Positions 26,230-41,325 of a stretch of DNA of 64,000 bases are shown piece by piece; the first letter of the stretch is position 1, and every line of letters begins with the position of its first letter. Source of the DNA: a virus (Duplodnaviria; Caudoviricetes); the IMG/VR virus record IMGVR_UViG_3300027707_000013, positions 6,610 through 70,609 of that record; one strand, 5' to 3'. Both the position numbers and the translations under genes were made by a program. The notes under the pieces are model-generated. The model searched no databases, had not been told where the DNA came from, and saw nothing but the letters and a program-made list of their open reading frames with translations.

Positions 26230-27897
26230 TTAACCTCTTGTAATTACAATATTATTAAGTACTAAGATATCAAGATTGCAACTTAGAAAGGTTCCGATTG
26301 CGTCCATTGGGGTTTCAACAATAGGTTCGTGAGGTCCGTTAAAACTAGTGTTTAATAAAACAGGAACTCCTGTTTTTTCGTTAAATTTAGAAATTAACGA
26401 ATAAAATCTTGGATTATTTTCTACCGTAACAGATTGATGTCTTGATGAATTATCAATGTGGGTGATTGCAGGTACTTTATTTCTCCACTCTTCTTTAACG
26501 GTTGTTGTTACCAACATGTATGGGGAATAAACAGAGCTTTCAAACACATCTCCTTGATGTTCAAATAAAACCGCAGGGGCGAAAGGTCTATACCATTCTC
26601 TGCGTTTAATATCACTATTAATATGACCTGTCATCCAAGAGTTAATTGGTGAGGCAATAATTGAACGATTTCCTAACGCTCTTGGGCCAATTTCTGACCC
26701 TCCTTGGAACCATCCAATAACTCTATTTTGACTTAATGAGAAACTTACGTTTTCAATTAAATCATCAAAATTTTCATATTCGGTATAAACTAATGTAGGA
26801 TGTTCGTTAAGTGCTGCAAAAACTTCACCTTTAGAATACTCCCTACCAAAATAAGGACTTAACATTTCTGTTTCCTCAATATCTGTTAGTTTTTGGTATG
26901 CAAACCAAGCACAACCTAATGGTATTCCACTATCATCACTTGGAGGTAAAAAATAACAGTTTTCAAAAAGACCTGAGTTCAAAATTTTCTCATTTGAATT
27001 ACAGTTTAAGAAAGACCCACCAACAACACATATATTTTTAGAATCAGTAAATTTCTTGGTCATATTTGCCAACATTAAAGACGCTCTTTCTTGTTCTCGT
27101 TGGTAAATCCCAGCAACACAAGCTTTTGAATAGAAATCAGATTTCCAAGAAACTTTTGGGTATATGTTATTATTAGAAATGTAAATATCATCTTCCTTTT
27201 CCTCAACAAAAAACGGTGCCTCATTTACAATATCTTCATTAGCATAAGAAGCTAACCCCATTAATTTTCCTGCGGGCCATGTTTGAGTGTTTGGTTCGTA
27301 GATTAATTGAAGAGAGCCTGTTGAGTACATGGTACCCAACGAAACTCCTTCATCTGTGTTAATAGGAACGGGATATTTTATCCATTTTTTATAAAGTTCT
27401 TTATGTTCATTTTTATTAAAATGATATATAGAAATTCCTTCAGCCCAATCAGAATCAGTGTCTAAATTATATTCTTTTGGGTCATACCAAATGTGTGTTT
27501 TATTTTTGAAAGTAACGATACTTCCTGAGGCATCTGCAACAATTACCGCGGCGTCCTCTAACCCTGAGCTAAAGAATGCCGAATATGCGTGTGCCAAATG
27601 ATGAGGAATGAAATTTAATATTTCTACCTTAAGGTCATAATATTTTGAAAAAAATTGAGAACCTACAGTATCTTCAATTTCGGTTGTACTATACACATAG
27701 TAATCAATATCTCTATGTGTAATGCTAAGAGCATTTAAACAATAGTTAATTGATTCAAATGGTATTAGACCACCTTGATATGCCCCATCATGTTTTATTC
27801 GGGTAAGTCTTTCTTGGGTTATACCAACAACAACTTTACCGTTCTCAATGATGACAGCACCTTTGTCGTGTCCAACTGAAAATCCTAATACTCTCAT
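26230..27897 (-). CDS. carbamoyltransferase (NodU/CmcH family), copy 2
   Basis: HHLAHA, GKLMGLASY, PPSDDSG, GPRALGNRS, REWYRPFAP, LLNTSFNGPHEPIV. Confidence 0.9.
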   Translation of the reverse strand: MRVLGFSVGHDKGAVIIENGKVVVGITQERLTRIKHDGAYQGGLIPFESINYCLNALSITHRDIDYYVYSTTEIEDTVGSQFFSKYYDLKVEILNFIPHHLAHAYSAFFSSGLEDAAVIVADASGSIVTFKNKTHIWYDPKEYNLDTDSDWAEGISIYHFNKNEHKELYKKWIKYPVPINTDEGVSLGTMYSTGSLQLIYEPNTQTWPAGKLMGLASYANEDIVNEAPFFVEEKEDDIYISNNNIYPKVSWKSDFYSKACVAGIYQREQERASLMLANMTKKFTDSKNICVVGGSFLNCNSNEKILNSGLFENCYFLPPSDDSGIPLGCAWFAYQKLTDIEETEMLSPYFGREYSKGEVFAALNEHPTLVYTEYENFDDLIENVSFSLSQNRVIGWFQGGSEIGPRALGNRSIIASPINSWMTGHINSDIKRREWYRPFAPAVLFEHQGDVFESSVYSPYMLVTTTVKEEWRNKVPAITHIDNSSRHQSVTVENNPRFYSLISKFNEKTGVPVLLNTSFNGPHEPIVETPMDAIGTFLSCNLDILVLNNIVITRG

Positions 27898-28518: not shown

Positions 28519-29007
28519 CTAATAAACAAATGATTTTTGATAATCATTCCAAACCTTTTGAAGGTTTGCGTTATCATTAATCAATGTTGGTACATAAGGT
28601 TTTTGTTTCATAAACATCTTCGCCTCATCAGGTGTTCTATTTCCTTTCCTTAAGTTACATTTAAAACAAGACGTTACAAGGTTAGTCCATTCATTACCTC
28701 CACCTCTTGATTTAGGGGTAACGTGGTCTAACGTCAAATCTTTTTTTGACCCGCAATAAACACATTCGTGATTATCTCTCTTATATATTCTTGTCCTGTT
28801 CGCCCTTAACTTTCTAACCTGATATTTTATGTACTTTAATAATCGGATGATAACTGGGCGTACGTAGACATTGTATCCTGCAACAATAGGATTCTCGTCT
28901 GATTTTATAACTTCAGCCTTCCCTTTGTCCACCAATACAAAACCTCTCCTAACACTTGTTACATTAAGAGGGGTATAGTCGTAATTTAATACTAATACCG
29001 TACTCAT
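28519..29007 (-). CDS. HNH endonuclease
   Basis: RDNHECVYCG..TLDHVTPKSRGG..NLVTSCFKCNLRKG. Confidence 0.9.
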   Translation of the reverse strand: MSTVLVLNYDYTPLNVTSVRRGFVLVDKGKAEVIKSDENPIVAGYNVYVRPVIIRLLKYIKYQVRKLRANRTRIYKRDNHECVYCGSKKDLTLDHVTPKSRGGGNEWTNLVTSCFKCNLRKGNRTPDEAKMFMKQKPYVPTLINDNANLQKVWNDYQKSFVY

Positions 29008-29096
29008 TTTAATCCAATTTTTACAAACATAGTTTAATTAATTAATAAAAACAAAAAAGGGGACGAACTTCGACCCCTTTCTAATATACTAATGAT

Positions 29097-29201
29097 TTAG
29101 CAATATTTTATGGTTCGAGGTTTTCCACATCTCAAAGCTCCCGAGTTCTCATATTTTTGGTTAATTCCCAAAAGACACGTAATAAATTTGTCTATCATCA
29201 T
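29097..29201 (-). CDS. 34-aa small ORF followed by a terminator (possible leader peptide)
   Basis: MMIDKFITCLLGINQKYENSGALRCGKPRTIKYC; TATTTAT upstream; hairpin plus T-run at 29054-29080. Confidence 0.35.
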   Translation of the reverse strand: MMIDKFITCLLGINQKYENSGALRCGKPRTIKYC

Positions 29202-29277
29202 AATAATAAATATCTGTAAAAAGTTTCCAAAATCAAATTATTTCCATATCTTTGTTAAGAATTAAAAATATAAAAAA

Positions 29278-30051
29278 ATGACTATGAAACTAAAACAATT
29301 ATTTATTGCGATTTTCGCAACATCGGTATTATTCGTATCTTGTAGTAAAGATGACGTGTATGAACCAGTTAAACAAACTTCAATTGAATCAACTCAGGGA
29401 CAAGACCTAAGAACAATGTCTACATCACCGACTGTTTCAACGGTTGAACCAAAGGCTTACATTTTTGTTGAAAGTAGAATTAACAAAAGTCCAAGAAAAG
29501 TTGTGGATTATTTAAAAACAACTCAAAGACATTCACAATCAACAGGAACAAGATTTCTTTCTTTTTTTGTGAATGGTATTACAAGTTCTAATTTTAATGA
29601 TTTAATTAATTATTATAATATACCTTTTTGGAAAACTGACGCATCTTTAAAGGTTATCGAAACCGAAGTACCACAAGTAACTGGAGATGTGGATTCTTAT
29701 AATAACCCAAAATTAGCCTATAATTTTACAACTGTTAAAATACCTAAAGGTACGTTCAACGATTGGGGATGGGTTACGGTACTTATACCAACGTCAGCGA
29801 TGAATAATGACACAAAAAGACAAAATCAAATTGGTTATTATGCTAAAAACGGAAACAGAATAACCTCAAGCGGTAATAATACTCAAACAATTATTAACAC
29901 TAATAGACAACTATCGTCTTACGTAATCAATTATACAGGAAATGTAATCCCACAAGGTCAATATCGAGTATACACTACTCATGGCGGATTTGGAATGATG
30001 ATTGGTTTTAACTCAACAAATGACGTTTATTTTAGGGGAGCGTCTAATTAA
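29278..30051 (+). CDS. Bacteroidota-type lipoprotein
   Basis: VLFVSC lipobox; TATCTTTG upstream. Confidence 0.65.
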   Translation: MTMKLKQLFIAIFATSVLFVSCSKDDVYEPVKQTSIESTQGQDLRTMSTSPTVSTVEPKAYIFVESRINKSPRKVVDYLKTTQRHSQSTGTRFLSFFVNGITSSNFNDLINYYNIPFWKTDASLKVIETEVPQVTGDVDSYNNPKLAYNFTTVKIPKGTFNDWGWVTVLIPTSAMNNDTKRQNQIGYYAKNGNRITSSGNNTQTIINTNRQLSSYVINYTGNVIPQGQYRVYTTHGGFGMMIGFNSTNDVYFRGASN

Positions 30052-30107
30052 TTGAGATTTATTTAGAATTTATTTGATTTATAATATATTTATTGTAATA
30101 TTGCACT

Positions 30108-30206
30108 ATGAAAACTATGAACACAAATACAAATTTAGACACACCGACAACTCCTAATGGGGATGCAGGCACTATTTGCGTAAGTTCAGAAGCGAGTGGT
30201 TGGTAA
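30108..30206 (+). CDS. leader peptide 1 of tRNA cluster 1 (T/N/D/P/G/A-rich)
   Basis: MKTMNTNTNLDTPTTPNGDAGTICVSSEASGW*; 18 of codons 3-22 are T, N, D, P, G or A. Confidence 0.8.
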   Translation: MKTMNTNTNLDTPTTPNGDAGTICVSSEASGW

Positions 30207-30227
30207 CAATATTATAGCCAATTATCT

Positions 30228-30258
30228 AAACCCTGAACTAATACTTCAGGGTTTTTTT
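30228..30258 (+). terminator. attenuator terminator 1
   Basis: AAACCCTGAA-CTAATAC-TTCAGGGTTT plus T-run, 5 nt before tRNA-Pro. Confidence 0.85.
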
Positions 30259-30263
30259 ATGTA

Positions 30264-30337
30264 CGGGATGTAGCGTAGTCAGGTATCGCGCCACGTTTGG
30301 GACGTGGAGGCCGTTGGTTCGAATCCAGCTATCCCGA
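30264..30337 (+). tRNA. trnP: tRNA-Pro(TGG)
   Basis: Cloverleaf; anticodon arm CCACG-TTTGGGA-CGTGG. Confidence 0.95.
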
Positions 30338-30377
30338 CAAAAGTTTTCCTTATGGAAAAGTTTGATTATTATTATAT

Positions 30378-30449
30378 TGCTCTATCGTATAAGGGTTATT
30401 ACGGTTGACTGTTAATCAATTTATCCAAGTTCGAATCTTGGTGGAGCAG
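30378..30449 (+). tRNA. trnN: tRNA-Asn(GTT)
   Basis: GTTGA-CTGTTAA-TCAAT; T-loop TTCGAAT. Confidence 0.9.
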
Positions 30450-30529
30450 CTGTGGTGGGTGGAAAAATTCCAATGTTGTAGTATCGTGGATGGAGAAATC
30501 CTGAAGCATAAACAGACAAAAAGAAAGAA

Positions 30530-31018
30530 ATGATGTTAAAAACATTCTTATTGACTGGATTGTTATTGTTAGGAACAATAACAACAAAAGCACAAGAGAA
30601 GCAAGTACAGATTGATTCAAATACTAAAGAGAGTATTACAAAAGAAAATTTGTATGAGCAGATAATGAAGTACGGGATTAAGTTCCCTGATGTGGTATTC
30701 GCACAAGCGGTATTAGAGTCAGGTCAATTTACCTCCAAGTTGTTCAAATCGGCAAACAACTTATTTGGTATGAAAATACCAACAAAAAGGGAGTCATCGG
30801 CAAATGGTAAAACCAAAAGTGGATACTCAAGTTATGAAGATTGGAACTTTAGTGTATACGATTACTCTTTATGGCAAAATTTTATGTTAAGAAACAAAAG
30901 TGATTTAACAAAAAAAGAGTACCTTGCACTCCTTGGTAAGGTTTATGCAGAAGACAAAAGATATGTTAGTAGTTTAAAACGAGTAATCGGTGAACACCAA
31001 CATATTTTAACACAGTAA
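30530..31018 (+). CDS. glucosaminidase/FlgJ-like muramidase with signal peptide
   Basis: AQAVLESG, NNLFGMK, YAEDKRY. Confidence 0.85.
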   Translation: MMLKTFLLTGLLLLGTITTKAQEKQVQIDSNTKESITKENLYEQIMKYGIKFPDVVFAQAVLESGQFTSKLFKSANNLFGMKIPTKRESSANGKTKSGYSSYEDWNFSVYDYSLWQNFMLRNKSDLTKKEYLALLGKVYAEDKRYVSSLKRVIGEHQHILTQ

Positions 31019-31047
31019 AAAGTTTGGGGTGAAACTCCCCATAATTT

Positions 31048-31120
31048 GGTCCCGTGGTTGAATGGTTACAATTCCACCCTGTCACGGTGCGAGATACGGG
31101 TTCGAATCCCGTCGGGACCG
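31048..31120 (+). tRNA. trnD: tRNA-Asp(GTC)
   Basis: GGTCCCG/CGGGACC acceptor; loop CTGTCAC. Confidence 0.95.
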
Positions 31121-31177
31121 CAAAGAGGGTTATATGTGTAGTAACCTCAGGTGTGATATCCGCCACTACACTCTTAA

Positions 31178-31253
31178 GCGGTAGTAGCTCAGTTGGTAGA
31201 GCTCGTTCCTTCCAAGTACGAGGTCGCAGGTTCGAACCCTGTCTACCGCTCCA
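31178..31253 (+). tRNA. trnG: tRNA-Gly(TCC), CCA encoded
   Basis: Loop CTTCCAA; GCGGTAG/CTACCGC acceptor. Confidence 0.95.
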
Positions 31254-31300
31254 AGGGTTGTGGGAACCCAAGAGTATGTGATGAGCATACACCCACAAAT

Positions 31301-31376
31301 GCTTCCATAGCTCAGTTGGTAGAGCAGCTGATTTGTAATCAGCAGGTCGTTGGTTCGAGCCCGACTGGAAGCTCCA
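31301..31376 (+). tRNA. trnT: tRNA-Thr(TGT), CCA encoded
   Basis: GCTGA-TTTGTAA-TCAGC. Confidence 0.95.
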
Positions 31377-31381
31377 CTTTA

Positions 31382-31453
31382 GGGGATTTAGCTGAGTTGG
31401 TTTAGCACCGCCCTTGCACGGCGGGGACAAGAGTTCGAGTCTCTTATTCTCCA
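31382..31453 (+). tRNA. trnA: tRNA-Ala(TGC)
   Basis: G3.U70 pair; CCGCC-CTTGCAC-GGCGG. Confidence 0.95.
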
Positions 31454-31467
31454 CAAACAAATAAACG

Positions 31468-31821
31468 ATGGCACATCCAAACTTACATGCAAAATCATCC
31501 GCCAAAAAGTTTGGTGGGAAACCTGAGGACTACATTCATTTACACGAATGGTTAGATGAAACCAAAGGATGGTTTGGAGATTCACTTCATAGAATGTTTA
31601 GACATCATAGTGAAGGAATCTTTGAAATGGAAAAACGATTTGGTACTGAATTCAAAAACAGTGACGGGGATACCGTTTACACAAGATATATTGGAGAACA
31701 ACATATAAAAGAGGATTGTAATAACTACATTCCGTCAGCCAAAGAGTGGGTAAATAACATATCTACAAATCAACGACCTCAGTGGATGTTAAAAACAATA
31801 AAATTAGAATTCACTGACTGA
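31468..31821 (+). CDS. DUF6915-like protein
   Basis: MAHP..HAKSSAKKFGG.PEDY..HRMFRHHSEG..EQHIKED. Confidence 0.7.
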   Translation: MAHPNLHAKSSAKKFGGKPEDYIHLHEWLDETKGWFGDSLHRMFRHHSEGIFEMEKRFGTEFKNSDGDTVYTRYIGEQHIKEDCNNYIPSAKEWVNNISTNQRPQWMLKTIKLEFTD

Positions 31822-31832
31822 TATTTATAAGT

Positions 31833-32546
31833 ATGAAAGAACTTTTAACACCAGAAGAAAAACAATACTTAAAAAGAGTATCCAATTACTTAGGTTCAAT
31901 GGGGATGCAAGATGGTAATGTTGAAATTGACATAGATAATGGATGGACATTTAGTTATGATGATATCGATTGGAATTATATTACCCATTTCACTAATAAC
32001 TATAATGCGGATATTCCATCAGGATTAATACCAATACTTCAAAAAATAATGAAATATTGTGATGATGAGGGGTTAATTAAAGAACATGATGATAATATAA
32101 ATTATCAGAGATTAGAATATGATATTGATGTTGATGCTAAAAAAATTCAATTAAGTCATTGGTGGTCTTTTTATGATAGAGGTGAAGGTAGTTCAAGAGA
32201 ATATGATTCAGAAGAGGATATTGAAAGGTTTGATAGTTGGATGGAACTGTATTTTTCCGATGTCGAAATTCCCAATGATGGTGTCCTAACTGTAACCTAT
32301 AATGGGTCAGGTGATTCAGGTTATATGGAGAGTTCGTTTGAAGAAAATAATGACCAAGTTCCTGCAGGAATTGAGGATTGGTGTTACGGAGAATTATCAA
32401 GAAATTATGGTGGATGGGAAATTAATGAAGGGTCCGATGGTAACTTTATATTTGACTTCAACACAAAAATAGTTACATTAAATCATACAGAGAACATTGA
32501 AGAAAACGCAAGCGATACTTATTTTGAGCAGAGCTTCGCAAATTAA
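31833..32546 (+). CDS. DUF6878-like protein
   Basis: YNGSGDSG and GGWEINEGSDG motifs. Confidence 0.6.
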   Translation: MKELLTPEEKQYLKRVSNYLGSMGMQDGNVEIDIDNGWTFSYDDIDWNYITHFTNNYNADIPSGLIPILQKIMKYCDDEGLIKEHDDNINYQRLEYDIDVDAKKIQLSHWWSFYDRGEGSSREYDSEEDIERFDSWMELYFSDVEIPNDGVLTVTYNGSGDSGYMESSFEENNDQVPAGIEDWCYGELSRNYGGWEINEGSDGNFIFDFNTKIVTLNHTENIEENASDTYFEQSFAN

Positions 32547-32562
32547 GACATATTTATAAAAC

Positions 32563-32631
32563 ATGAGAACAACATTATTACATACGTTATTACTTGATAG
32601 ACAAGGTCTATTAAGAAGACTTATGCCGTAA
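32563..32631 (+). CDS. leader peptide 2 of tRNA cluster 2 (Leu/Arg-rich)
   Basis: MRTTLLHTLLLDRQGLLRRLMP*; 5 TTA, 2 CTT, 1 CTA and 4 AGA codons. Confidence 0.8.
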   Translation: MRTTLLHTLLLDRQGLLRRLMP

Positions 32632-32663
32632 TTTGTTCAGAGCCGTTCTATTTATAGATATTC

Positions 32664-32695
32664 AACCCTGAACCAAAAAAGTTCGGGGTTTTTTT
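32664..32695 (+). terminator. attenuator terminator 2
   Basis: AACCCTGAAC-CAAAAAA-GTTCGGGGTT plus T-run. Confidence 0.85.
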
Positions 32696-32735
32696 ATGAC
32701 TTTTTCAGAGATATTCACTATCTTTGTAAAATAAC

Positions 32736-32820
32736 GCCGAGGTGGTGTAATGGTAGCCACGAGGGACTTAAAATCCCTTGGTCAGTAACGACCGTGAGGG
32801 TTCGAGTCCCTCCCTCGGTA
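32736..32820 (+). tRNA. trnL: tRNA-Leu(TAA)
   Basis: AGGGA-CTTAAAA-TCCCT; long variable arm. Confidence 0.95.
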
Positions 32821-32827
32821 CAAAATT

Positions 32828-32901
32828 GGTTTGGTAGCTCAGCTGGATAGAGCAACGCACTTCTAATGCGTAGGTCATAGGTTCGAATCCTATCCGAATC
32901 A
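32828..32901 (+). tRNA. trnR: tRNA-Arg(TCT)
   Basis: ACGCA-CTTCTAA-TGCGT. Confidence 0.95.
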
Positions 32902-32903
32902 CA

Positions 32904-32997
32904 ATCATTATCGTAGCTCAGTGAGATACGGCGCAAGATACACACTTAAACAACGCGGGAGAGGCGCCTTTCCCGATGTGGCTGAAGCGATAATGAT
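32904..32997 (+). ncRNA. unassigned structured RNA between tRNAs
   Basis: 10-bp closing stem ATCATTATCG/CGATAATGAT with internal CGGGAGAG/CTTTCCCG hairpin. Confidence 0.45.
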
Positions 32998-33001
32998 ATT
33001 T

Positions 33002-33082
33002 ACCCCGATGGCGTAATGGTAGCCGCGCAAGTCTTAGGAACTTGTGACTTCGGTCGTATCGGTTCGAGTCCGATTTGGGGTA
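33002..33082 (+). tRNA. trnL: tRNA-Leu(TAG)
   Basis: CAAGT-CTTAGGA-ACTTG; long variable arm. Confidence 0.95.
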
Positions 33083-33096
33083 CAAGAAAGTAAATT

Positions 33097-33816
33097 ATGT
33101 ACGTACAAAATCCTTTAGTTAAAACTAGTCAACCGAATTTATTTCATTTGGCTCCAATTCCCGTATTCATGAAAGTTTTCGGTGACGATGAATTCCATGA
33201 TGAGGTATACACGTTTGGGTTTGAGAATCTAACTCCCCAACAAAAGTTAATGGGTCAGGAACTTCCTGAACAATACGACATTAACAGACAATCAAATTAT
33301 TCTGTGAATTACGATAAGAGAGAAATGTGGGTGGAACCTACAGAGTATAATCCTATTGGTAGTCGTTTTTGGACACCGCCTAACGACTTTCTTGACATCA
33401 ACAATGAGAACGTTAAGAAGATTAGACAAAGGGTTGAGAGTGGTTATATGGAGTTATTAGACATGTTAGGGTTCCAACACAATAGAAAACCTGATATTAC
33501 CGAGAGCTGGATTCAATATTATAACCCAACTGAAGGTAGAGGTCATAATGCTCACAATCACTGTAGATGGCAACCAAATGAAGAAACAATGTTAAACTTC
33601 TCAGGAGGTTATTACTTATCTGACGGTGACCCTATTGCCGACCATCCTTATAGTGGAGTTTTTACATTCCATATTAGAGGGATGTCTCACTTTATCAGAC
33701 CTAAAAAAGGTATGTTAATCATTTGGCCGTATGATATCGTACATTCGGTTAAACCATTTTACGGAAAAACACATAGATGTGTTATTAATTTCAATATTCA
33801 AGACGGAAAAAAATGA
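33097..33816 (+). CDS. 2OG-Fe(II) oxygenase-like protein (TIGR02466-like)
   Basis: ESWIQYY, HNAHNH, FSGGYYL, KGMLIIWP..HSVKP, RCVINFN. Confidence 0.75.
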   Translation: MYVQNPLVKTSQPNLFHLAPIPVFMKVFGDDEFHDEVYTFGFENLTPQQKLMGQELPEQYDINRQSNYSVNYDKREMWVEPTEYNPIGSRFWTPPNDFLDINNENVKKIRQRVESGYMELLDMLGFQHNRKPDITESWIQYYNPTEGRGHNAHNHCRWQPNEETMLNFSGGYYLSDGDPIADHPYSGVFTFHIRGMSHFIRPKKGMLIIWPYDIVHSVKPFYGKTHRCVINFNIQDGKK

Positions 33817-33867
33817 TTATCTATATTATATATATAATAAATAATATGTTTAAATTAACAAGTAAAG

Positions 33868-34455
33868 ATGCTATATAAAACTTTTGTTATTTCATTAAAA
33901 AGAAGACCCGATAGAAGAGCAAAAATTAAAGATTTGTTTATAAAAAACAATCTAAAGTTTTCTTTTTATGACGCAATTGATGGACGTGATTTAATTGTTA
34001 CGGATGAGATTGAAGAATTATTTTTAAATAATGAGTTTGAAGATTGGGGTATAATAAAAGAATGTATCTATGGTAATACCTTAACTCATCTAAAGCTATT
34101 GAAAGAATGTTCTGAGCAGAATTTACCGTATTTTATTTTTGAGGATGATGTTAAAATAAAGAAAGATATTAATTTCACGTTTGAGAGTATTGTTGAAAAA
34201 CAATTAGATGCTTTTTGGTTAATAGATTTAGAACCTTCGTCGTTAGCATACGTTGTTTGGCCTGAAGGGGCTAAAAAAATACATGATTGGATAATGAATG
34301 TTGGAAAGGCAGATAAAGGAATGGATTGGAAATTATTAGAAATAAAAAACACTAATCTCCTAAATTCTGATAAGATATGGGACGAATACTTCTATCAAGT
34401 ACCTGGAGAAGATTCCGATATTGCCCCTAAAGGATATAAAAAAATAATAATATGA
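33868..34455 (+). CDS. glycosyltransferase family 25
   Basis: VISLKRRPDRR, FYDAIDG, THLKLL, IFEDDV. Confidence 0.85.
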   Translation: MLYKTFVISLKRRPDRRAKIKDLFIKNNLKFSFYDAIDGRDLIVTDEIEELFLNNEFEDWGIIKECIYGNTLTHLKLLKECSEQNLPYFIFEDDVKIKKDINFTFESIVEKQLDAFWLIDLEPSSLAYVVWPEGAKKIHDWIMNVGKADKGMDWKLLEIKNTNLLNSDKIWDEYFYQVPGEDSDIAPKGYKKIII

Positions 34456-35030
34456 AACAAATAGATTTAGATATTTTTGTATTTCCAAAAATCATGACTG
34501 ATGAACTTATTGAAAGACTAATGTCGGTTAGAAATAAGAGCGGTTTTGATGGAAGATTAGATTTACATATTGAGGATAAAAACACATTTTATATTTTTGA
34601 TAATTTTTGGTTTTCTGAAATTGAATCCAAATATTTGGGACATTATTTTAGTACGTATGATGTTGAAAAAGGAATAGGATTAAATTCAAGTGAGGAGACT
34701 ATAAAACAATTAAGTAAATTTGTTGAAACAAAATGGAGAGATTTATTCTTACTTCATTATACACCTAATAGTTTAATTAACGGTGAAAAAGATATTCATT
34801 GGGATTTTAGTGGGTTAAGTATGGTTGGATGTTTAACTGATGATTATGAAGGAGGTAAACTAATTTTTCCTAGACAGAATGTTACTTACAGATTAGAAAA
34901 AGGGGATGTTATCGTGTTTCCAGGAGGTTTAACTCACCCACACTATGTGGAACCCGTAACTAAAGGTTTTAGGGATGTAATTGTTGGTCAAAGTATGACA
35001 TTACCTCAAGACCATAAAATCGATTATTAA
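34452..35030 (+). CDS. 2OG-Fe(II) oxygenase (lysyl/prolyl hydroxylase-like)
   Basis: IHWD, DYEGGKL, FPG..THPH.VEPVTKG.R. Confidence 0.8.
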   Translation: MKQIDLDIFVFPKIMTDELIERLMSVRNKSGFDGRLDLHIEDKNTFYIFDNFWFSEIESKYLGHYFSTYDVEKGIGLNSSEETIKQLSKFVETKWRDLFLLHYTPNSLINGEKDIHWDFSGLSMVGCLTDDYEGGKLIFPRQNVTYRLEKGDVIVFPGGLTHPHYVEPVTKGFRDVIVGQSMTLPQDHKIDY

Positions 35031-35036
35031 AAATAA

Positions 35037-35067
35037 TTTGACAACTCAGAGATTTTTACTATCTTTG
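35037..35067 (+). promoter_or_regulatory. Bacteroidota-type promoter of leader 3
   Basis: TTTG-N19-TATCTTTG. Confidence 0.7.
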
Positions 35068-35085
35068 AACTATATATTAGAAATA

Positions 35086-35187
35086 ATGAAAACTACAATA
35101 AAACATATGGTCTTTAGTACACAGCAAAAATCGATTTGTTGGTATGAGCGTATGCGCGATTGTAGTTCGGATATAATTTTTGAGTAA
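35086..35187 (+). CDS. leader peptide 3 of tRNA cluster 3
   Basis: MKTTIKHMVFSTQQKSICWYERMRDCSSDIIFE*; contains all 13 amino acids of cluster 3 and no L, P, G, A or N. Confidence 0.8.
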   Translation: MKTTIKHMVFSTQQKSICWYERMRDCSSDIIFE

Positions 35188-35222
35188 TTTTTTAAAATAA
35201 AAATAAACCAAATTTTTTATAT

Positions 35223-35255
35223 ACCCCGAACTCGTAAAAAGGTTCGGGGTTTTTT
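35223..35255 (+). terminator. attenuator terminator 3
   Basis: ACCCCGAACT-CGTAAAAA-GGTTCGGGGT plus T-run. Confidence 0.85.
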
Positions 35256-35271
35256 GTTTTAAAATTGTTAG

Positions 35272-35283
35272 GTTCTTTGAAAT
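35272..35283 (+). promoter_or_regulatory. boxA-like antitermination element
   Basis: GTTCTTTGAAAT; the same TTCTTTGAAAT lies just upstream of the tmRNA. Confidence 0.5.
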
Positions 35284-35313
35284 ATTGGTTGTAATTTTGT
35301 ACTTGATTTAAAC

Positions 35314-35387
35314 GTCGCGTTGGACAAATTGGTTAAGTCGTCATCCTTTCACGATGAAGATTACGGGTTCGAACCCCGTACGCGATA
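35314..35387 (+). tRNA. trnE: tRNA-Glu(TTC)
   Basis: TCATC-CTTTCAC-GATGA. Confidence 0.95.
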
Positions 35388-35397
35388 CATAATTTAC

Positions 35398-35469
35398 AGT
35401 TCCTTAGCTCAGTGGAAGAGTCCTTGCCTTACATGCAAGTAGTCGTAGGTTCGAATCCTACAGGAACTA
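35398..35469 (+). tRNA. trnV: tRNA-Val(TAC)
   Basis: CTTGC-CTTACAT-GCAAG. Confidence 0.95.
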
Positions 35470-35474
35470 CATTA

Positions 35475-35547
35475 GGTGACGTAGCTCAGTTGGTAGAGCA
35501 CTTGCCTGAAGAGCAAGGTGTCGTCAGTTCGATTCTGACCGTTACCA
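35475..35547 (+). tRNA. trnF: tRNA-Phe(GAA)
   Basis: CTTGC-CTGAAGA-GCAAG. Confidence 0.95.
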
Positions 35548-35622
35548 CGGAGTCCCGAATTAACGGGAAACCCCCACTCCCATATGGCAGCCAGTCCGTT
35601 AACCTGGTGAAGTGGGGTATTT

Positions 35623-35696
35623 GACCTCTTAGCTCAGTTGGCTAGAGCACTTCACTTTTAATGAAGGAGTCCCGAGTTCGAGTCTCGGAGGGGTCA
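35623..35696 (+). tRNA. trnK: tRNA-Lys(TTT)
   Basis: CTTCA-CTTTTAA-TGAAG. Confidence 0.95.
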
Positions 35697-35711
35697 CAAA
35701 AAACATATATT

Positions 35712-35945
35712 ATGAAAGCAATACTTGAATTTAATTTACCTGAAGATAATCAGGAGTTTGAATTGGCAACAAAGGGTCTTAAATTTTGGTCGGTCTTATG
35801 GGAATTAGACCAATCTTTAAGGACTAAAACAAAATATGCTCCCGACAATTTACCTCAAGATAAGTACGACGCTTATCAAGAAATAAGGGATGAACTTCGT
35901 GAGTTAATGTCGGATAATAATGTTAATTTTGACATGGTTAAATAA
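35712..35945 (+). CDS. conserved-looking phage hypothetical protein
   Basis: MKAILEFNLPED; start moved out of tRNA-Lys. Confidence 0.65.
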   Translation: MKAILEFNLPEDNQEFELATKGLKFWSVLWELDQSLRTKTKYAPDNLPQDKYDAYQEIRDELRELMSDNNVNFDMVK

Positions 35946-35956
35946 AAAACAATAAG

Positions 35957-36580
35957 ATGATAGATAACATAAACATAATAAAACCGTTATTAAACTTCGA
36001 GGAGAAGGGAGACTTCTATATGTTGTATGTCTTCAAACGTAAGAAAGACCAACCTGAAGGTGAGAGAGATAACCATCAGTCGGTTAGAACTATCAAAACA
36101 TATTGCATTGAATCAATTGACCATTTGGAAAGGAGATATGATGAGGTAAAACAACTATGTGAGATGTTCAAGGCAAGAGCTTACATTCATGTTCAGAAAC
36201 AAAATCACAGAGATGTGTCTTTGGATATGTTGGCGAGTTTAGCTGAGAGAATTAAGAATGGAGTTCAAAACCAAAAGGGGTTATTTGATTCGGTTGTTGG
36301 ACAGATTAAGACTCAAGAGAAAAGATGGATTATCGATATTGATAACGTATCAATGGATGGATTCAATCATGACCCATACCAAGTATCGTTGAGAGAATAT
36401 ATAAACGAGTTACAGAAAGAGGCAGGAAAAGACCAAGGAATGACTTTTATTAAGACAAGAAGTGGATTCCATATCATAACTCAACCTTTTAATGTGATGA
36501 AATTTAAAGAAAGATATCCCGAGGTTGATATCCAAAAAAAGAACCCAACATTATTATATTATCCCAATAATTTGGGTTAA
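35957..36580 (+). CDS. hypothetical protein, possible AEP/primase-like fold
   Basis: WIIDID..TRSGFH resembles the DxD and SGxH motifs; the fold assignment is weak. Confidence 0.55.
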   Translation: MIDNINIIKPLLNFEEKGDFYMLYVFKRKKDQPEGERDNHQSVRTIKTYCIESIDHLERRYDEVKQLCEMFKARAYIHVQKQNHRDVSLDMLASLAERIKNGVQNQKGLFDSVVGQIKTQEKRWIIDIDNVSMDGFNHDPYQVSLREYINELQKEAGKDQGMTFIKTRSGFHIITQPFNVMKFKERYPEVDIQKKNPTLLYYPNNLG

Positions 36581-36595
36581 ATTTGTAAAACAAAG

Positions 36596-36667
36596 GGTCG
36601 GTTGGCCGAGTGGTTTAGGCGGTAGTCTGCAAAACTATCTACACAGGTTCGATTCCTGTACCGACCT
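36596..36667 (+). tRNA. trnC: tRNA-Cys(GCA)
   Basis: GTAGT-CTGCAAA-ACTAT. Confidence 0.95.
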
Positions 36668-36668
36668 C

Positions 36669-36788
36669 ATGACAAAGAAAGAAATTAACAAAATGGTTAA
36701 AGCCATTAGAATGACAACAAAAAAAGCTTGTAAGAATAAGAAATCTGCTCGTAAGTTTCTTATTAAGGCGGGAATTGTAAAAAAATAA
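36669..36788 (+). CDS. 39-aa Lys-rich peptide
   Basis: MTKKEINKMVKAIRMTTKKACKNKKSARKFLIKAGIVKK*, filling the Cys-Trp spacer. Confidence 0.5.
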   Translation: MTKKEINKMVKAIRMTTKKACKNKKSARKFLIKAGIVKK

Positions 36789-36789
36789 T

Positions 36790-36862
36790 ACGTGTGTAGC
36801 TCAGACGGTAGAGCAGTAGTCTCCAAAACTATGTGTCAGAGGTTCGAATCCTTTCATGCGTG
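36790..36862 (+). tRNA. trnW: tRNA-Trp(CCA)
   Basis: GTAGT-CTCCAAA-ACTAT. Confidence 0.93.
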
Positions 36863-36865
36863 CTA

Positions 36866-37127
36866 AAGGTTGATTGGAAAGCCTTACACCTTCTCTAAGG
36901 AGTTGGAATGTAAGCGAGGGGACTGAATGAAGTCGAAGAAATGCCAATCATAAAAGTAGATGTCCACGCACCCATCTTCTACTTTCCTTAAAATATTAGG
37001 TTGATTGGGGAATGATGATGTAAATACCTGGTAGTGGTTGGAATAAGACATCGTCGGAGTTTAAATTACCATTAGTAATGCCAATCATAAAAGGAGATGT
37101 CCACTGAACCATCTTCTCCTTTCCTTA
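36866..37127 (+). ncRNA. two tandem copies of an unassigned structured RNA motif
   Basis: Both copies read AGGTTGATTGG..GTTGGAAT..ATGCCAATCATAAAAG(T/G)AGATGTCCAC..CCATCTTCT(A/C)CTTTCCTT, with a compensatory T-A/G-C change. Confidence 0.65.
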
Positions 37128-37131
37128 TTTT

Positions 37132-37213
37132 GGGAGTATCGCATAGCGGCAATTGCAGAAGACTGTAAATCTTCCCTCTTTAGAGTTCGTAGGTTCGAGT
37201 CCTACTCCTCCCA
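37132..37213 (+). tRNA. trnY: tRNA-Tyr(GTA)
   Basis: GAAGA-CTGTAAA-TCTTC; long variable arm. Confidence 0.95.
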
Positions 37214-37219
37214 CATTTT

Positions 37220-37293
37220 GGACTTGTAGCTCAGTTGGTTAGAGCGCTTCACTCATAATGAATAGGTCCCTGGTTCGAGCCCAGGCTGGTCCA
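37220..37293 (+). tRNA. tRNA with CAT anticodon (probably Ile2, possibly Met)
   Basis: Loop CTCATAA; C4-G69 pair as in Ile2 tRNAs. Confidence 0.85.
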
Positions 37294-37299
37294 CAATAT

Positions 37300-37370
37300 T
37301 GCCCGATGGTGTAGCGGTAGCACAAATGTTTTTGGTGCATTTAGGGTTGGTTCGAATCCAGCTCGGGTAA
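37300..37370 (+). tRNA. trnQ: tRNA-Gln(TTG)
   Basis: AATGT-TTTTGGT-GCATT; TGCCCGA/TCGGGTA acceptor. Confidence 0.92.
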
Positions 37371-37379
37371 CTAAATAAA

Positions 37380-37451
37380 ATGAATATGTGGTTTTTAATT
37401 GTTTGGATTGTATTGATGATTATTGTCAAATGGGACAATGACCGTGATTAG
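37380..37451 (+). CDS. 23-aa hydrophobic peptide
   Basis: MNMWFLIVWIVLMIIVKWDNDRD*. Confidence 0.35.
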   Translation: MNMWFLIVWIVLMIIVKWDNDRD

Positions 37452-37523
37452 GGTTTTATGGTGTAACGGATAGCACACGAAACTACGGATTTCGGAGTTT
37501 AGGTTCGAATCCTAATAGAACCT
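37452..37523 (+). tRNA. trnR: tRNA-Arg(ACG)
   Basis: CGAAA-CTACGGA-TTTCG. Confidence 0.92.
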
Positions 37524-37529
37524 CTAAAC

Positions 37530-37599
37530 TGCGTGGCTTAGAGGAAAAGAACTATCTCTCATAAGGATGGTCAATTGGGTTCGAAACCCAAACACGCAA
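37530..37599 (+). tRNA. atypical tRNA with CAT anticodon (Met-like), weak D-arm
   Basis: TGCGTG/CACGCA acceptor, loop CTCATAA, T-arm TTGGG-TTCGAAA-CCCAA. Confidence 0.6.
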
Positions 37600-37604
37600 C
37601 ATAT

Positions 37605-37678
37605 GGTGGCTATAGCTCAGTTGGCAGAGCGCTTGGTTGTGGTCCAAGTTGTCACGGGTTCGATTCCCGTTAGTCACC
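37605..37678 (+). tRNA. trnH: tRNA-His(GTG)
   Basis: G-1 and C73; CTTGG-TTGTGGT-CCAAG. Confidence 0.95.
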
Positions 37679-37812
37679 CAAAGTGTTTACAACGGACAAG
37701 GCTTAGGCAAGTGAGTTGAGAATGAGTAGTAGGAGATTTAATCGTTTGGACTACAGAAAGTTTGATACAATAGATTGGTGGGATGCGAGTGGTTGACCAA
37801 AACACTTATTAC

Positions 37813-37898
37813 GGAAGGATGGCAGAGTTGGTCTATCGCGCTTGACTTGAAATCAAGTGTACTGCAAGGTACCGTGGGTTCGAATCCTACTCCTTCCG
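37813..37898 (+). tRNA. trnS: tRNA-Ser(TGA)
   Basis: CTTGA-CTTGAAA-TCAAG; long variable arm. Confidence 0.95.
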
Positions 37899-37930
37899 CA
37901 ATTTTTTACCCATATTGACTATTTATTAGT

Positions 37931-38380
37931 ATGGAAAAAGTAACATTAACAAAAGAGCAACTATTCAAGGTAATGCATTTGAATGAGCAGGAAAATAAGC
38001 CTGAAACTAAAAGTAACTCAGGATTTAAGAATATGGTGTCAACACTATTACATTCTCAAACTCAAGTACATATTTTTCATTTACAGACTAAGTCATATTC
38101 TGAACATAAAGCATTACAAAAGTACTATGAAGGTATTGACGCATTAGTGGACGGTATTATCGAAAGTTATCAAGGTAAGTACGATGTTATTAAAAATTAT
38201 GATTCAGTTAAAACTGAGGACTACAAGAGTTCTGAGCAAGTAATTAATTATTTCAAATCATTAGATACTATGATTGAGAAAGCAAGAAAAGGAGTTAAAG
38301 AATCGTATATTCAAAACCAAATTGATACGGTTCAGGAATTAATATTTTCCACAGTGTATAAGTTAAGATTCTTAAAATAA
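37931..38380 (+). CDS. ferritin/Dps-like protein (DUF5856-like) with head-type propeptide
   Basis: QVHIFHLQTKSYSEHKALQKYYEGI..D.IIESYQG; TATTTAT at 37920. Confidence 0.7.
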   Translation: MEKVTLTKEQLFKVMHLNEQENKPETKSNSGFKNMVSTLLHSQTQVHIFHLQTKSYSEHKALQKYYEGIDALVDGIIESYQGKYDVIKNYDSVKTEDYKSSEQVINYFKSLDTMIEKARKGVKESYIQNQIDTVQELIFSTVYKLRFLK

Positions 38381-38474
38381 TATACTGTTGAAATCTAATA
38401 TTGAATTCCTCTAATTAAAAGTTAGGGGAATTTTTTTTTATGGTATGATTTTAATATATTTGTACCAACAACAA

Positions 38475-38548
38475 TGGAATATAACTCAGTTGGTTAGAGT
38501 GTCATCCTGATACGGTGAAAGTCGATGGTTCGAGTCCATCTATTCCAA
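38475..38548 (+). tRNA. trnI: tRNA-Ile(GAT)
   Basis: TCATC-CTGATAC-GGTGA. Confidence 0.93.
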
Positions 38549-38550
38549 CA

Positions 38551-38886
38551 ATGGAAAATGAAATTAAAAAGAAAACTGGCAATAGAGCCAAGTTTAAGAA
38601 AATTGTAAAAGAGTATAAAGAAGCGACCAATAAAGAGATTTGGGAAGGAGTTAGAGATAATTTTACTTTCGGGTTTATTGGAGCGACTATTGTTGTGTTT
38701 ATAGCGACAAGAGCTGATATTGCGGTATTATTAGGTTATTTAGCTTATTACTTTTTTGTAGGTAAGATAGTTAATCGACCAAAATACGTAACCGATTTGG
38801 GAAAATTAATTGTGTTTCCAGTACCATCAGCATTAGGTGCATTTATAGGATATAAATTATCCTATTACCTTTTACAGTTATTGTAA
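38551..38886 (+). CDS. membrane protein
   Basis: Three hydrophobic segments; start moved out of tRNA-Ile. Confidence 0.6.
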   Translation: MENEIKKKTGNRAKFKKIVKEYKEATNKEIWEGVRDNFTFGFIGATIVVFIATRADIAVLLGYLAYYFFVGKIVNRPKYVTDLGKLIVFPVPSALGAFIGYKLSYYLLQLL

Positions 38887-38892
38887 TGTTTT

Positions 38893-38978
38893 GGAAAGTT
38901 ACCCAAGTTGGTGAAGGGGCTTGTTTGCTAAACAAGTAGGGTGTAAAAGCCGCGAGGGTTCGAGCCCCTCACTTTCCG
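38893..38978 (+). tRNA. trnS: tRNA-Ser(GCT)
   Basis: CTTGT-TTGCTAA-ACAAG; long variable arm. Confidence 0.95.
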
Positions 38979-39066
38979 CAGAAAAAAAATATTTGAAAAG
39001 TTGACATAATCGATTAACCTTCTTATATTTATAATCTATTAATAAATAAAACAAATAAAAAAAAAC

Positions 39067-39252
39067 ATGAAAAAAGTAGTATTAGCAATCTTTACAATCG
39101 TAGCGTTAGCCTCTTGTGGTAACGGAAAATCAACTGAAGTTAAATCTGACTCAACTGTAGTAGCGGTAGATTCAGTTAAAGTAGATTCAGCAGCAGTGGC
39201 TGTAGATTCTGTAAAAGCTGAAGCGCCTGCGTCAGTAGAAGAAAAAAAATAA
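39067..39252 (+). CDS. small lipoprotein with D(S/T)(A/V/T) repeats
   Basis: IVALASC lipobox; own TTGACA-N17-TATATT promoter and terminator. Confidence 0.75.
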   Translation: MKKVVLAIFTIVALASCGNGKSTEVKSDSTVVAVDSVKVDSAAVAVDSVKAEAPASVEEKK

Positions 39253-39297
39253 TTACATTCTATTGGAAAAACAAAACCCACCTATTGGTGGGTTTTT

Positions 39298-41325
39298 TTA
39301 TTTTAATAATCTTTTAATTTTTTCAATGTTTTCGGTAACTTTCTTTCTTCCAAGTGGGTCCTTGATAAAATTTAATATCCATGGGTCTACTTCTCTTTCG
39401 TCAGCAACTCCTCCCCATCTTTTCTGAGTCATTTCTCCTGTTTTCTCATCGTATTTATTTCCGAATACTTTATCAATTGCCTTTGCAGGTAAAGAAGATA
39501 CCATTGATGTGATATTGTCTATAGGTGTTCTATCACTATCAAAGACAGATGACCTACCCGATTGATTTTTCTTATTGTCTTTACCCGATGAACTATCTTT
39601 TTTAGGAGAATCTGTTTTAATACCGCCCGAACCAATCGGTACTGTATTCCATGAACCGTCTAACATTGTAACTTCAACATCAGAATCAGTTTTACCTATA
39701 ACATCTCCAACTGAAATTGATTGACCATCTCTGACCATAGGAGAACTTATACCACAAAATTGTAGGTAGAATTTTTTATTATCCTCATTCTTGATTGTAA
39801 TTTGGTTTGTACATGATGAAGAATATCTTTTGTTAAAAACAACACCTGATATCGGGCTTTTAATTTTTGGATTAGTGTCTTTAGGAATTATAATTCTACC
39901 GTATCTGTTACTAACGTCTCTACCAAAACTTTTTTGTTCTCCAAGTTGGGTATTTTCTGTTTTAAGAAATTTACTTGCAATCGATTTACCCATCTGTACT
40001 AAATAATCGTCTTTAGCGACATTAGGAGCATCAAATACTGAACCTGATTTTGCTGATTGAACCCCTGTTGCAGCATTATATGCCGTTTCACTCGAATTTG
40101 AATCTACTGTAGGAGCAGTTCCTGACTCTCCTGAGTTATTCGATACGTGTAAATGGTTGAAGTGGTTACCACCTGTATTTGTTTGCCACAGGACCGCTTT
40201 ACTATTACCTGACTCAGTGTTTAGTGTATAACCCATAGAAACCAAGGCGTTGGCTAGTTTGGTTCCAAGAGACCTAAACTCCGCATTACCGTTGGACGCA
40301 TTGGTTGCACCTCCTGCACCAACACCATTTAAGATTGCAATATCAACAGCGGTTTGTTGACCATGTCTACTTGTATTACCTGTCTTAGTTTTTATAGAAT
40401 GACCTGTACTTGCAGTGGTAATTGTTGTAGTAATACCCGCAGCTTTTGATGCGGCATCAAGGTCATCTAATAACGGTTTATTAACCGAATCAAATTGAGT
40501 TCCATCACTATCGTATTTAAGATTACTATAACTTGTGTCATTGAGTTGAACCAACTCTAATTCACTTAAGATATTCTTATTGTTAGTTAGAATATCTTCA
40601 TATATTGATAATATCTGTTCATCAACATTTTCTGTTTTAAGAAATTTACTTGCAATTGATTTACCCATTTGTACTAAATAATCGTCTTTATCGACATTAG
40701 GTGCATCAAATACTGAATCTGATTTTGCGGTTACAGCCCCCGAAGTACTTGTAGCAGCATTATACGCTGTTTCACTACTATTTCCTGTCACGGTAGTTCC
40801 TGAAATTGATTGTCCGTTAGCACATTTTAAAGTCCCGTTGTCATTTAAGAATTGTCTTACATTACCTGATTCAACTCCAATATGTAAGTGGTCGTAATCA
40901 CTACCTGGAAAGTCCATAACATAACCCAAAAGTTGACCACACGTAACTTTATCACCTTGTTTTACCGTCACATCTTTCAAGTGAGTATAATACACGTCTG
41001 GAAGACCATCATCACTATCAACAGTAAATCCTGCCCCAAATAAAGTTTTCCCATCTTTTTTTATTGGTGTCGGGCCATAATCAGTATATGTTTTAAGAGT
41101 TCCTCCTATAACTGCATATACAGGTGTACCTATTGTGGCTTTGATATCCCAAGCATTATTACTTTGCCATCCTGATTGACCCCCATGGGCTCCATCCGAA
41201 GGGATTGATACATTACTTCCACCAAATAACTCACTACTTGCGTTAGAAACCTCATTAATTGATTTGGTCTTTAAAATAGACTCATACAATGATAAGATAT
41301 CTAATATTTCTTTTTCTTTGGACAT
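39298..41325 (-). CDS. multidomain peptidoglycan hydrolase (M23, M15-like, degenerate M23)
   Basis: WDIKA..GTPVYA..YTHL..HLHIG; SRHGQQTAVD..HFNHLHVS; duplicated linker. Confidence 0.75.
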   Translation of the reverse strand: MSKEKEILDILSLYESILKTKSINEVSNASSELFGGSNVSIPSDGAHGGQSGWQSNNAWDIKATIGTPVYAVIGGTLKTYTDYGPTPIKKDGKTLFGAGFTVDSDDGLPDVYYTHLKDVTVKQGDKVTCGQLLGYVMDFPGSDYDHLHIGVESGNVRQFLNDNGTLKCANGQSISGTTVTGNSSETAYNAATSTSGAVTAKSDSVFDAPNVDKDDYLVQMGKSIASKFLKTENVDEQILSIYEDILTNNKNILSELELVQLNDTSYSNLKYDSDGTQFDSVNKPLLDDLDAASKAAGITTTITTASTGHSIKTKTGNTSRHGQQTAVDIAILNGVGAGGATNASNGNAEFRSLGTKLANALVSMGYTLNTESGNSKAVLWQTNTGGNHFNHLHVSNNSGESGTAPTVDSNSSETAYNAATGVQSAKSGSVFDAPNVAKDDYLVQMGKSIASKFLKTENTQLGEQKSFGRDVSNRYGRIIIPKDTNPKIKSPISGVVFNKRYSSSCTNQITIKNEDNKKFYLQFCGISSPMVRDGQSISVGDVIGKTDSDVEVTMLDGSWNTVPIGSGGIKTDSPKKDSSSGKDNKKNQSGRSSVFDSDRTPIDNITSMVSSLPAKAIDKVFGNKYDEKTGEMTQKRWGGVADEREVDPWILNFIKDPLGRKKVTENIEKIKRLLK
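39952..40717. repeat. 91-bp direct repeat (39952-40042 and 40627-40717)
   Basis: Four mismatches; encodes SVFDAPNV.KDDYLVQMGKSIASKFLKTEN. Confidence 0.85.

Follow-up and report, generated by a model that had tools for sequence, protein, structure and literature searches.

In the amino-acid operons of enterobacteria, ribosome-mediated transcription attenuation combines a short leader rich in the sensed codons with a terminator and an antiterminator that share the terminator's 5' arm. The trp, his, leu and phe leaders are single-amino-acid leaders, the thr leader carries Thr and Ile codons, and the ilvGMEDA and ilvBN leaders carry Ile, Leu and Val codons. A variant that acts on the translation machinery is the pheST attenuator of E. 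coli, in which a leader with Phe codons precedes the phenylalanyl-tRNA synthetase genes. We analysed a stretch of 64,000 nucleotides from the IMG/VR virus record IMGVR_UViG_3300027707_000013, referred to throughout as the window, which makes up 64 kb of a 70.6-kb contig (33.6% G+C) from an uncultured freshwater phage. Its tRNA genes fall into three blocks, and each block follows a short leader open reading frame (ORF) and an intrinsic terminator. In our reading these elements are probably ribosome-mediated transcription attenuators of the trp/thr/ilv type, placed before tRNA genes rather than biosynthetic genes.

The phage elements resemble the enterobacterial attenuators in having a short leader rich in the putatively sensed codons, whose translation is predicted, together with a terminator and an antiterminator sharing its 5' arm. 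Further points of likeness are a predicted helix between regions 1 and 2 (in leaders 2 and 3) and a stop codon at which a finishing ribosome would block region 2. They differ in their targets, which are phage tRNA genes and not biosynthetic enzymes, and in having probable internal promoters after two of the three terminators. The leaders differ as well, since a phage leader covers as many as 13 amino acids, most of them present once or twice, where an enterobacterial leader has a run of one to three kinds. The Rfam Trp, His, Leu, Phe and Thr leader models gave no match at the three phage leaders, and there is no sequence relation. Like pheST, the phage elements would place an attenuator on translation machinery for the same amino acid, as feedback on decoding capacity; the target of pheST, however, is a synthetase, it senses one amino acid, and it belongs to a cellular gene. 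With T-box riboswitches they would share the principle that tRNA status decides between terminator and antiterminator before translation-related genes. T-box RNAs bind uncharged tRNA directly and are untranslated, whereas the sensing part of the phage RNA behaves as coding sequence.

The leader ORFs and the tRNA blocks that they precede are as follows.

30108-30206, + strand: leader ORF 1; ATG start, 32 codons, with Thr, Asn, Asp, Pro, Gly or Ala at 20 of them
30264-31454, + strand: tRNA block 1; Pro, Asn, (glucosaminidase gene 30530-31018), Asp, Gly, Thr, Ala
32563-32631, + strand: leader ORF 2; ATG start, 22 codons with 8 Leu (5 TTA, 3 CTN) and 4 AGA
32736-33083, + strand: tRNA block 2; Leu(TAA), Arg(TCT), structured 99-nt spacer, Leu(TAG)
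35086-35187, + strand: leader ORF 3; ATG start, 33 codons with all 13 block-3 amino acids, Arg as CGT and CGC
35314-38979, + strand: tRNA block 3; Glu, Val, Phe, Lys, Cys, Trp, Tyr, Met, Gln, Arg(ACG), His, Ser(TGA), Ile, Ser(GCT)

ARAGORN and Rfam agree on 23 tRNA genes, every one on the + strand, between 30264 and 38979. An earlier reading of this DNA made without database searches (the sequence-only reading) had counted 24, and neither program found the 24th.

Each leader is written largely in the codons of the tRNAs behind it. Background codon usage was taken from the 59 long ORFs of the window, and each codon was assigned to the block holding the matching tRNA, with Arg split into AGR and CGN. 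On this basis the background codon shares of blocks 1, 2 and 3 are 0.337, 0.109 and 0.555. Own-block codons account for 20/32 codons in leader 1, 12/22 in leader 2 and 28/33 in leader 3 (binomial p = 8e-4, 6e-7 and 3.6e-4, respectively). Compared with random 32-codon peptides, leader 3 stands out both in covering 13/13 block-3 amino acids (simulated p of about 1e-3) and in lacking any L, P, G, A, N or AGR codon (simulated p of about 5e-6). The match extends to the choice of Arg codon: all four in leader 2 are AGA, and leader 3 uses CGT and CGC, though CGN makes up just 20% of phage Arg codons (80% are AGR). The sequence-only reading had described these features of composition, from the T/N/D/P/G/A-rich leader 1 and the 8 Leu and 4 AGA codons of leader 2 to the 13 amino acids of leader 3, the absence there of L, P, G, A and N, the codon-level match for Arg, and the MKT or MRT that opens all three leaders; the description holds in every part. 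Own-block codons are enriched beyond background in all three leaders, and the observation is therefore real.

We next compared the window with 38 IMG/VR loci gathered through two neighbouring proteins, here given L numbers, which represent five lineages with differing tRNA sets. Leaders 1 and 3 occur in 5/5 lineages, and the leader reading frame is open in every variant. Five clean indels fall within leader ORFs, all of them multiples of 3 (3 nt in leader 1), and indels in the spacers have arbitrary lengths. Several leaders have changed together with their tRNA blocks. L010, which has no tRNA-Lys or tRNA-Arg(ACG), has a leader 3 without any Lys or Arg codon; it also has no tRNA-Ala, and an Ala codon of leader 1 is Gly there. 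In L027, Phe is gone from leader 3 along with tRNA-Phe. Taken over the two lineages with a reduced leader 3, which may be non-independent, codons were lost for 4/10 lost tRNAs versus 0/16 kept ones (hypergeometric p of about 0.014). Leader 2 is found only in window-like phages plus L077 and L112. L035 and L036, phages at a greater distance, share the 2OG-oxygenase-like neighbour gene and have tRNAs without leaders.

The candidate switch elements lie between the leader codons and the tRNAs. Intrinsic terminators with 10-bp G+C-rich stems and T-runs separate leader and tRNAs at all three loci and are kept in relatives, with 22-36 nt from the end of the leader ORF to the hairpin and T-run (+ strand). 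Region 2 is a copy of the terminator 3' arm near the ORF end, and can pair with the terminator 5' arm plus the first loop base.

30183-30189, + strand: region 2 of attenuator 1; pairs with 30233-30239, core GTTCAGA invariant in 8 variants
30200-30221, + strand: helper hairpin of attenuator 1; 30200-30204 with 30217-30221, encloses the stop codon, both arms invariant, including in the L024 group (where the 5' arm is outside the ORF)
30228-30258, + strand: intrinsic terminator 1; 10-bp stem, 7-nt loop, T-run
32635-32640, + strand: region 2 of attenuator 2; pairs with 32668-32673
32664-32696, + strand: intrinsic terminator 2; 10-bp G+C-rich stem, T-run
35092-35099, + strand: region 1 of attenuator 3; codons 3-5, pairs with 35159-35166
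35159-35170, + strand: region 2 of attenuator 3; the 5' part pairs with region 1, the 3' part (35164-35170) with the terminator at 35226-35232
35223-35255, + strand: intrinsic terminator 3; 10-bp stem, 8-nt loop, T-run

In leaders 1 and 3, region 2 is 7 nt long and lies within the ORF, its first base 20 nt upstream of the stop codon. Region 2 of leader 2 is 6 nt long and begins 4 nt past the stop codon, giving stop-codon offsets of +20, -6 and +20 for leaders 1, 2 and 3. Pairing of region 1 with region 2 is predicted for leaders 2 and 3. For leader 2 in the absence of a ribosome, region 2 is held in a long predicted helix with codons 2-7 (32567-32581 with 32628-32638); the upstream helix of leader 1, in the window, leaves region 2 uncovered. 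RNAfold predicted the antiterminator in 12/12 variants tested when the 3' arm was absent and the 5' part blocked, and the terminator in the complete RNA. The folding of a single sequence proves nothing, and the evidence had to be comparative. The predicted region 1:2 helix of leader 3 is maintained through compensatory changes, at one pair in L019 and at two in L027. The leader 3 of L027 has also lost the usual region 2 and carries in its place a new 7-bp complement to the terminator loop.

T-box and other riboswitches likewise have a choice between terminator and antiterminator as their output, and the elements might be RNA switches of this sort, untranslated and binding tRNA or another ligand directly, with the ORFs incidental. 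We regard this as highly improbable. Rfam shows no T-box or other riboswitch match in 29000-40000, even at E <= 1, and a single specifier in one RNA cannot cover 13 tRNAs. From the start codon to region 2 the sequence is short and, apart from its amino-acid make-up, free to vary, with indels in frame.

For ribosome-mediated attenuation, a wider sample was obtained by scanning IMG/VR with the RNA core only (regions 2, 3 and 4, with an R and a Y left free); neither an ORF nor a tRNA was part of the query. The scan returned 79 phage loci with 53 unique sequences. An ATG ORF of 19-53 codons, its stop placed -6 to +26 nt from region 2 (counted first base to first base, with offsets up to +70 permitted), is present in every case but one, a match that starts 15 nt into its locus and so at the edge. 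A same-strand tRNA follows 10-277 nt downstream at all loci but one, which is at a locus end. The leaders in this sample are diverse and the tRNA blocks differ; one example is a Ser/Tyr/Leu-rich leader before His-Ser-Tyr-Leu-Leu. Scored against their own downstream tRNA sets, 13 family representatives have 0.536 matched codons versus 0.353 +/- 0.037 when permuted (P <= 5e-5). For 15 'checklist' leaders the codon match is 0.70 versus 0.55, and 97.5% versus 85.5% of the amino acids with a downstream tRNA are present in the leader (P <= 5e-5 for each).

The same 53 sequences show covariation in the antiterminator. The R left free in region 2 and the Y left free in the terminator 5' arm form G-C in 17 sequences, A-T in 34, G-T in 2 and A-C in none (51/53 Watson-Crick), and at the same position in the terminator's own 3' arm G-T is tolerated in 25/53. 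The flanking pair joins the base 5' of region 2 to the first base of the terminator loop; both were free in the search query and are unpaired in the terminator. It is Watson-Crick in 43/53 sequences against 17.3 expected (P <= 5e-5), as A-T in 12, G-C in 19 and T-A in 12, and all three types occur inside single leader families. The next pair outward reaches 24/53 (P = 0.02), and the third pair gives no signal. Leader 1 can be read in the same light. Its invariant nucleotides are grouped in islands (GTTCAGA, TGGT, GCCAA and the terminator arms) that cross codon boundaries, and TGGT is kept in the L024 group though it is located past the stop codon there. The codon position immediately 5' of the GTTCAGA core takes all four bases because it contributes to the covarying flanking pair of the antiterminator. 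As judged from these alignments, the island pattern is that of an RNA structure superimposed on a coding frame.

Composition match and coding constraint say only that translating these codons matters, and the fold evidence from single sequences is weak. The leaders could be translated and sense decoding speed with a different output, such as an inverted, pyrBI-like logic, an action of Rho or RNase on the spacer, or an effect on precursor stability or processing. This explanation appears unlikely on two grounds. The ORF stop is 22-36 nt before the stem, too distant for a terminating ribosome to melt the hairpin, and the covarying helix between regions 2 and 3 is predicted by the trp scheme and not needed by the alternatives.

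According to that scheme, the attenuators would operate as follows. Transcription would run into a short ORF written in the codons of the downstream phage tRNAs, entering leader 3 from a dedicated promoter and leaders 1 and 2 probably from upstream genes. A ribosome that reaches the stop codon would sit on or just past region 2, so that the terminator hairpin forms and the transcript ends. A ribosome slowed at one of the listed codons would leave region 2 free to pair with the terminator 5' arm and first loop base, and the polymerase would continue into the tRNAs. When leaders 2 and 3 are untranslated, a helix between codons 2-7 and region 2 would keep termination as the default. The outcome would be negative feedback, with more of a tRNA block made whenever the decoding capacity of that block falls short. 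The trigger could be starvation, host shut-off or tRNA-cleaving defences, and a response to tRNA shortage or anticodon nucleases may be what the switches provide. The likeness to trp, his, leu and pheST attenuators that the sequence-only reading had put forward fits the codon match, the in-frame indels, the covarying antiterminator and the read-through required for block 1.

We then considered how transcripts would enter and leave these elements. The Bacteroidota-type promoter motif TTTG-N18-20-TAnnTTTG occurs 9 times in the window versus 2.3 expected, mostly immediately before genes, and the following promoter-like sequences lie around the leaders.

30073-30103, + strand: possible leader 1 promoter; TTTG, 19 nt, and a one-mismatch TAnnTTTG ending 4 nt before the ATG; uncertain
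32719-32726, + strand: TAnnTTTG promoter-like motif of block 2; 9 nt before tRNA-Leu(TAA), with the same motif directly before the block in relatives without leader 2
35037-35067, + strand: promoter P1 of leader 3; exact TTTG-N19-TAnnTTTG, 19 nt before leader 3
35292-35299, + strand: TAnnTTTG promoter-like motif P2 of block 3; 14 nt before tRNA-Glu, conserved in relatives

P1 is conserved in L010 and L112. The putative promoter of leader 1 is outside the exact-match set and is not conserved in L010. Leader 2 has no promoter of its own; it begins 17 nt past the stop of the gene at 31833-32546, with which it is probably co-transcribed. Of the arrangement proposed from sequence at the outset, with promoter, short ORF and terminator before every cluster, the ORF and the terminator are thus present three times and a canonical promoter only at leader 3, leader 1 having one mismatch and leader 2 none.

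The distance from the T-run to the first tRNA is 5, 39 and 58 nt in blocks 1, 2 and 3. The tRNA-Pro gene starts at 30264, 5 nt past the T-run, with no space for a promoter, and block 1 can therefore be transcribed only through the terminator. Several other loci place the tRNA 10-23 nt past the matched pattern, and there, too, read-through is the only way it could be made. Blocks 2 and 3 very likely have their own promoters downstream of the terminators, to judge from the intervening TAnnTTTG. The presence of this motif between terminator and tRNA implies that the attenuator modulates expression in these blocks and is not an on-switch. The attenuators probably add transcripts to a basal level rather than acting as the sole source.

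These promoter-like motifs, which stand 9-14 nt before four tRNAs, raise an alternative in which the hairpins are ordinary insulating terminators, the tRNAs are made solely from the TAnnTTTG promoters behind them, and the short ORFs are unrelated or due to chance. Two further arrangements agree with it: block 2 is preceded by a bare terminator in L019 and by a promoter alone in L010, and the window itself has a leaderless terminator-promoter-tRNA layout at 38403-38475. We nevertheless give insulation a low probability. It accounts for neither the codon match nor the covariation of a helix specific to the antiterminator, it leaves unexplained the invariant islands that cross codons and the in-frame indels, and block 1 has no room for a promoter. 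The possibility that tRNAs are made only from promoters past the terminators, which the sequence-only reading had named as a challenge to its own proposal, accordingly fails for block 1 and meets a TAnnTTTG motif in blocks 2 and 3.

The leaderless layout deserves description in its own right. The gene at 37931-38380 is followed by a plain terminator with a 14-bp stem, a TAnnTTTG at 38455-38462 and, 12 nt on, tRNA-Ile. This is the terminator-promoter-tRNA order of blocks 2 and 3 minus the leader ORF, and it forms a natural control. A leader ORF for the plain terminator at 38403 was considered, and none was found.

Several observations weigh against attenuation as the explanation of these loci. 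TAnnTTTG lies 9-14 nt before tRNA-Leu (32736), tRNA-Glu (35314), tRNA-Cys (36596) and tRNA-Ile (38475), where we estimate that about 0.13 such placements would be expected by chance, and most tRNAs may be made from their own promoters regardless of the attenuator. In the window itself the antiterminator pairing is unremarkable: dinucleotide shuffles pair the terminator 5' arm equally well or better in 41%, 8.5% and 19% of cases for leaders 1-3, and the p values for an exact complement are only 0.037, 0.082 and 0.013. Shared ancestry of the sequences inflates the permutation P values. The sequence-only reading had proposed that leader codons be checked for following tRNA content across related phages; they do so across the motif-found loci (P <= 5e-5) but not in fine detail within the Pro-type family alone, where leader content does not significantly track tRNA gain and loss (P = 0.14). 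The leader 3 of L027 retains codons for Glu, Val, Lys and Arg although the matching tRNAs are missing. Conservation of the leader ORFs is likewise divided, with leaders 1 and 3 in five lineages and leader 2 missing in the L019, L024, L027 and L010 groups, all of which keep the Leu/Arg block; at the site of the missing leader there is a bare terminator in L019 and only a promoter-like motif in the other three groups. Finally, anatomy, composition match, conservation and covariation are observed, and translation of the leaders, termination and regulated read-through are what we infer from sequence.

Metatranscriptome data touch leader 3. One contig spans 34922-35306, a stretch that includes leader 3 with its terminator, and a contig of another run has the same starting base. 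Leader 1 is covered by none of the metatranscriptome contigs listed. These are assembled contigs, uninformative on ends, levels and strand and possibly affected by DNA carry-over, and we conclude nothing from them.

The blocks contain more than tRNA genes, being broken up by protein genes, a plain terminator (38403-38433) and promoter-like motifs. All of these occur inside block 3, where the TAnnTTTG motifs are at 36578 and 38455. The 99-nt spacer of block 2 (32903-33001), between tRNA-Arg(TCT) and tRNA-Leu(TAG), has an 11-bp closing stem and a minimum free energy of -31.4 kcal/mol (z = -3.6), and is not a tRNA according to ARAGORN or Rfam. At this position relatives carry another sequence, similar in size (L010 9082-9192), and a variant form of the spacer is covered by a metatranscriptome contig at a depth of 105. 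The gap between tRNA-Cys and tRNA-Trp (36669-36788) is filled by a 39-codon ORF with about one-third Lys codons; no terminator follows it, and it is not an attenuator of the present kind. Behind a 61-codon lipoprotein-like ORF (39067-39252), a bidirectional terminator at 39233-39322 gave sub-threshold matches to the Rfam Phe_leader and Leu_leader models (26-32 bits against cut-offs of 50-55), which we rejected as attenuators since the hairpin alone accounts for them. The tRNA region also encodes two 2OG-Fe(II) oxygenase-like genes, a family-25 glycosyltransferase, DUF6915, DUF6878 and DUF5856.

Among the relatives, one sub-lineage (L013 at about 11565-11650, and also L004-L009, L014 and L015) has about 80 nt inserted after the P2 motif and before tRNA-Glu, which the window lacks. 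A solitary tRNA-Met(CAT) lies about 1.3 kb upstream of leader 1 at L019 5683 and L024 5895, with no leader before either, and the L019 copy is directly behind a TAnnTTTG motif.

Elsewhere in the window there are terminase and portal genes, and on the - strand (24612-27897 and 49551-51563) two adjacent Nol-like carbamoyltransferase genes and an ATP-dependent protease gene (phrog_4871). The large terminase is less than 32% identical to that of any cultured phage, and a megablast search of the 10-kb region against 50,697 phage records matched single tRNAs only. The promoter type and the lack of Shine-Dalgarno sequences suggest that the host is probably a member of the Bacteroidota.

Current answers to why phages carry tRNAs are codon compensation and escape from tRNA-cleaving defences, and the use of phage tRNAs as a counter-defence against tRNA-cleaving systems gives a reason for a phage to need extra tRNA (PMC10264068; PMC11464382). 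Both papers treat the tRNAs themselves, and the words 'attenuator' and 'leader ORF' are absent from them. Full-text literature searches returned no paper on leader-peptide attenuation of tRNA genes, in phages or otherwise. What is known is leader-peptide attenuation, including multivalent forms such as thr and ilv; what is new is the tRNA-gene target, the checklist leaders and the sequence family.

We lean towards the view that these loci belong to a widespread phage regulon, in which large phages of (probably) Bacteroidota sort their tRNAs into blocks, each gated by a checklist leader and a terminator/antiterminator switch that would keep supply steady and restore it when starvation, host shut-off or a tRNA-cleaving defence depletes tRNAs. 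If true, this would be the first ribosome-mediated attenuation controlling tRNA genes, and its leaders the first to sense more than 10 amino acids at once. Textbook leader-peptide attenuation would thereby extend to a new class of target gene and to checklist leaders of up to 13 amino acids. The elements would also supply compact natural reporters of the decoding capacity for chosen codons, and the question is accessible to simple reporters. Why and when phages use their tRNAs is an old question. A sensor that reads decoding codon by codon would make tRNA supply a regulated quantity, and would account for the sorting of tRNA genes into blocks by amino acid.

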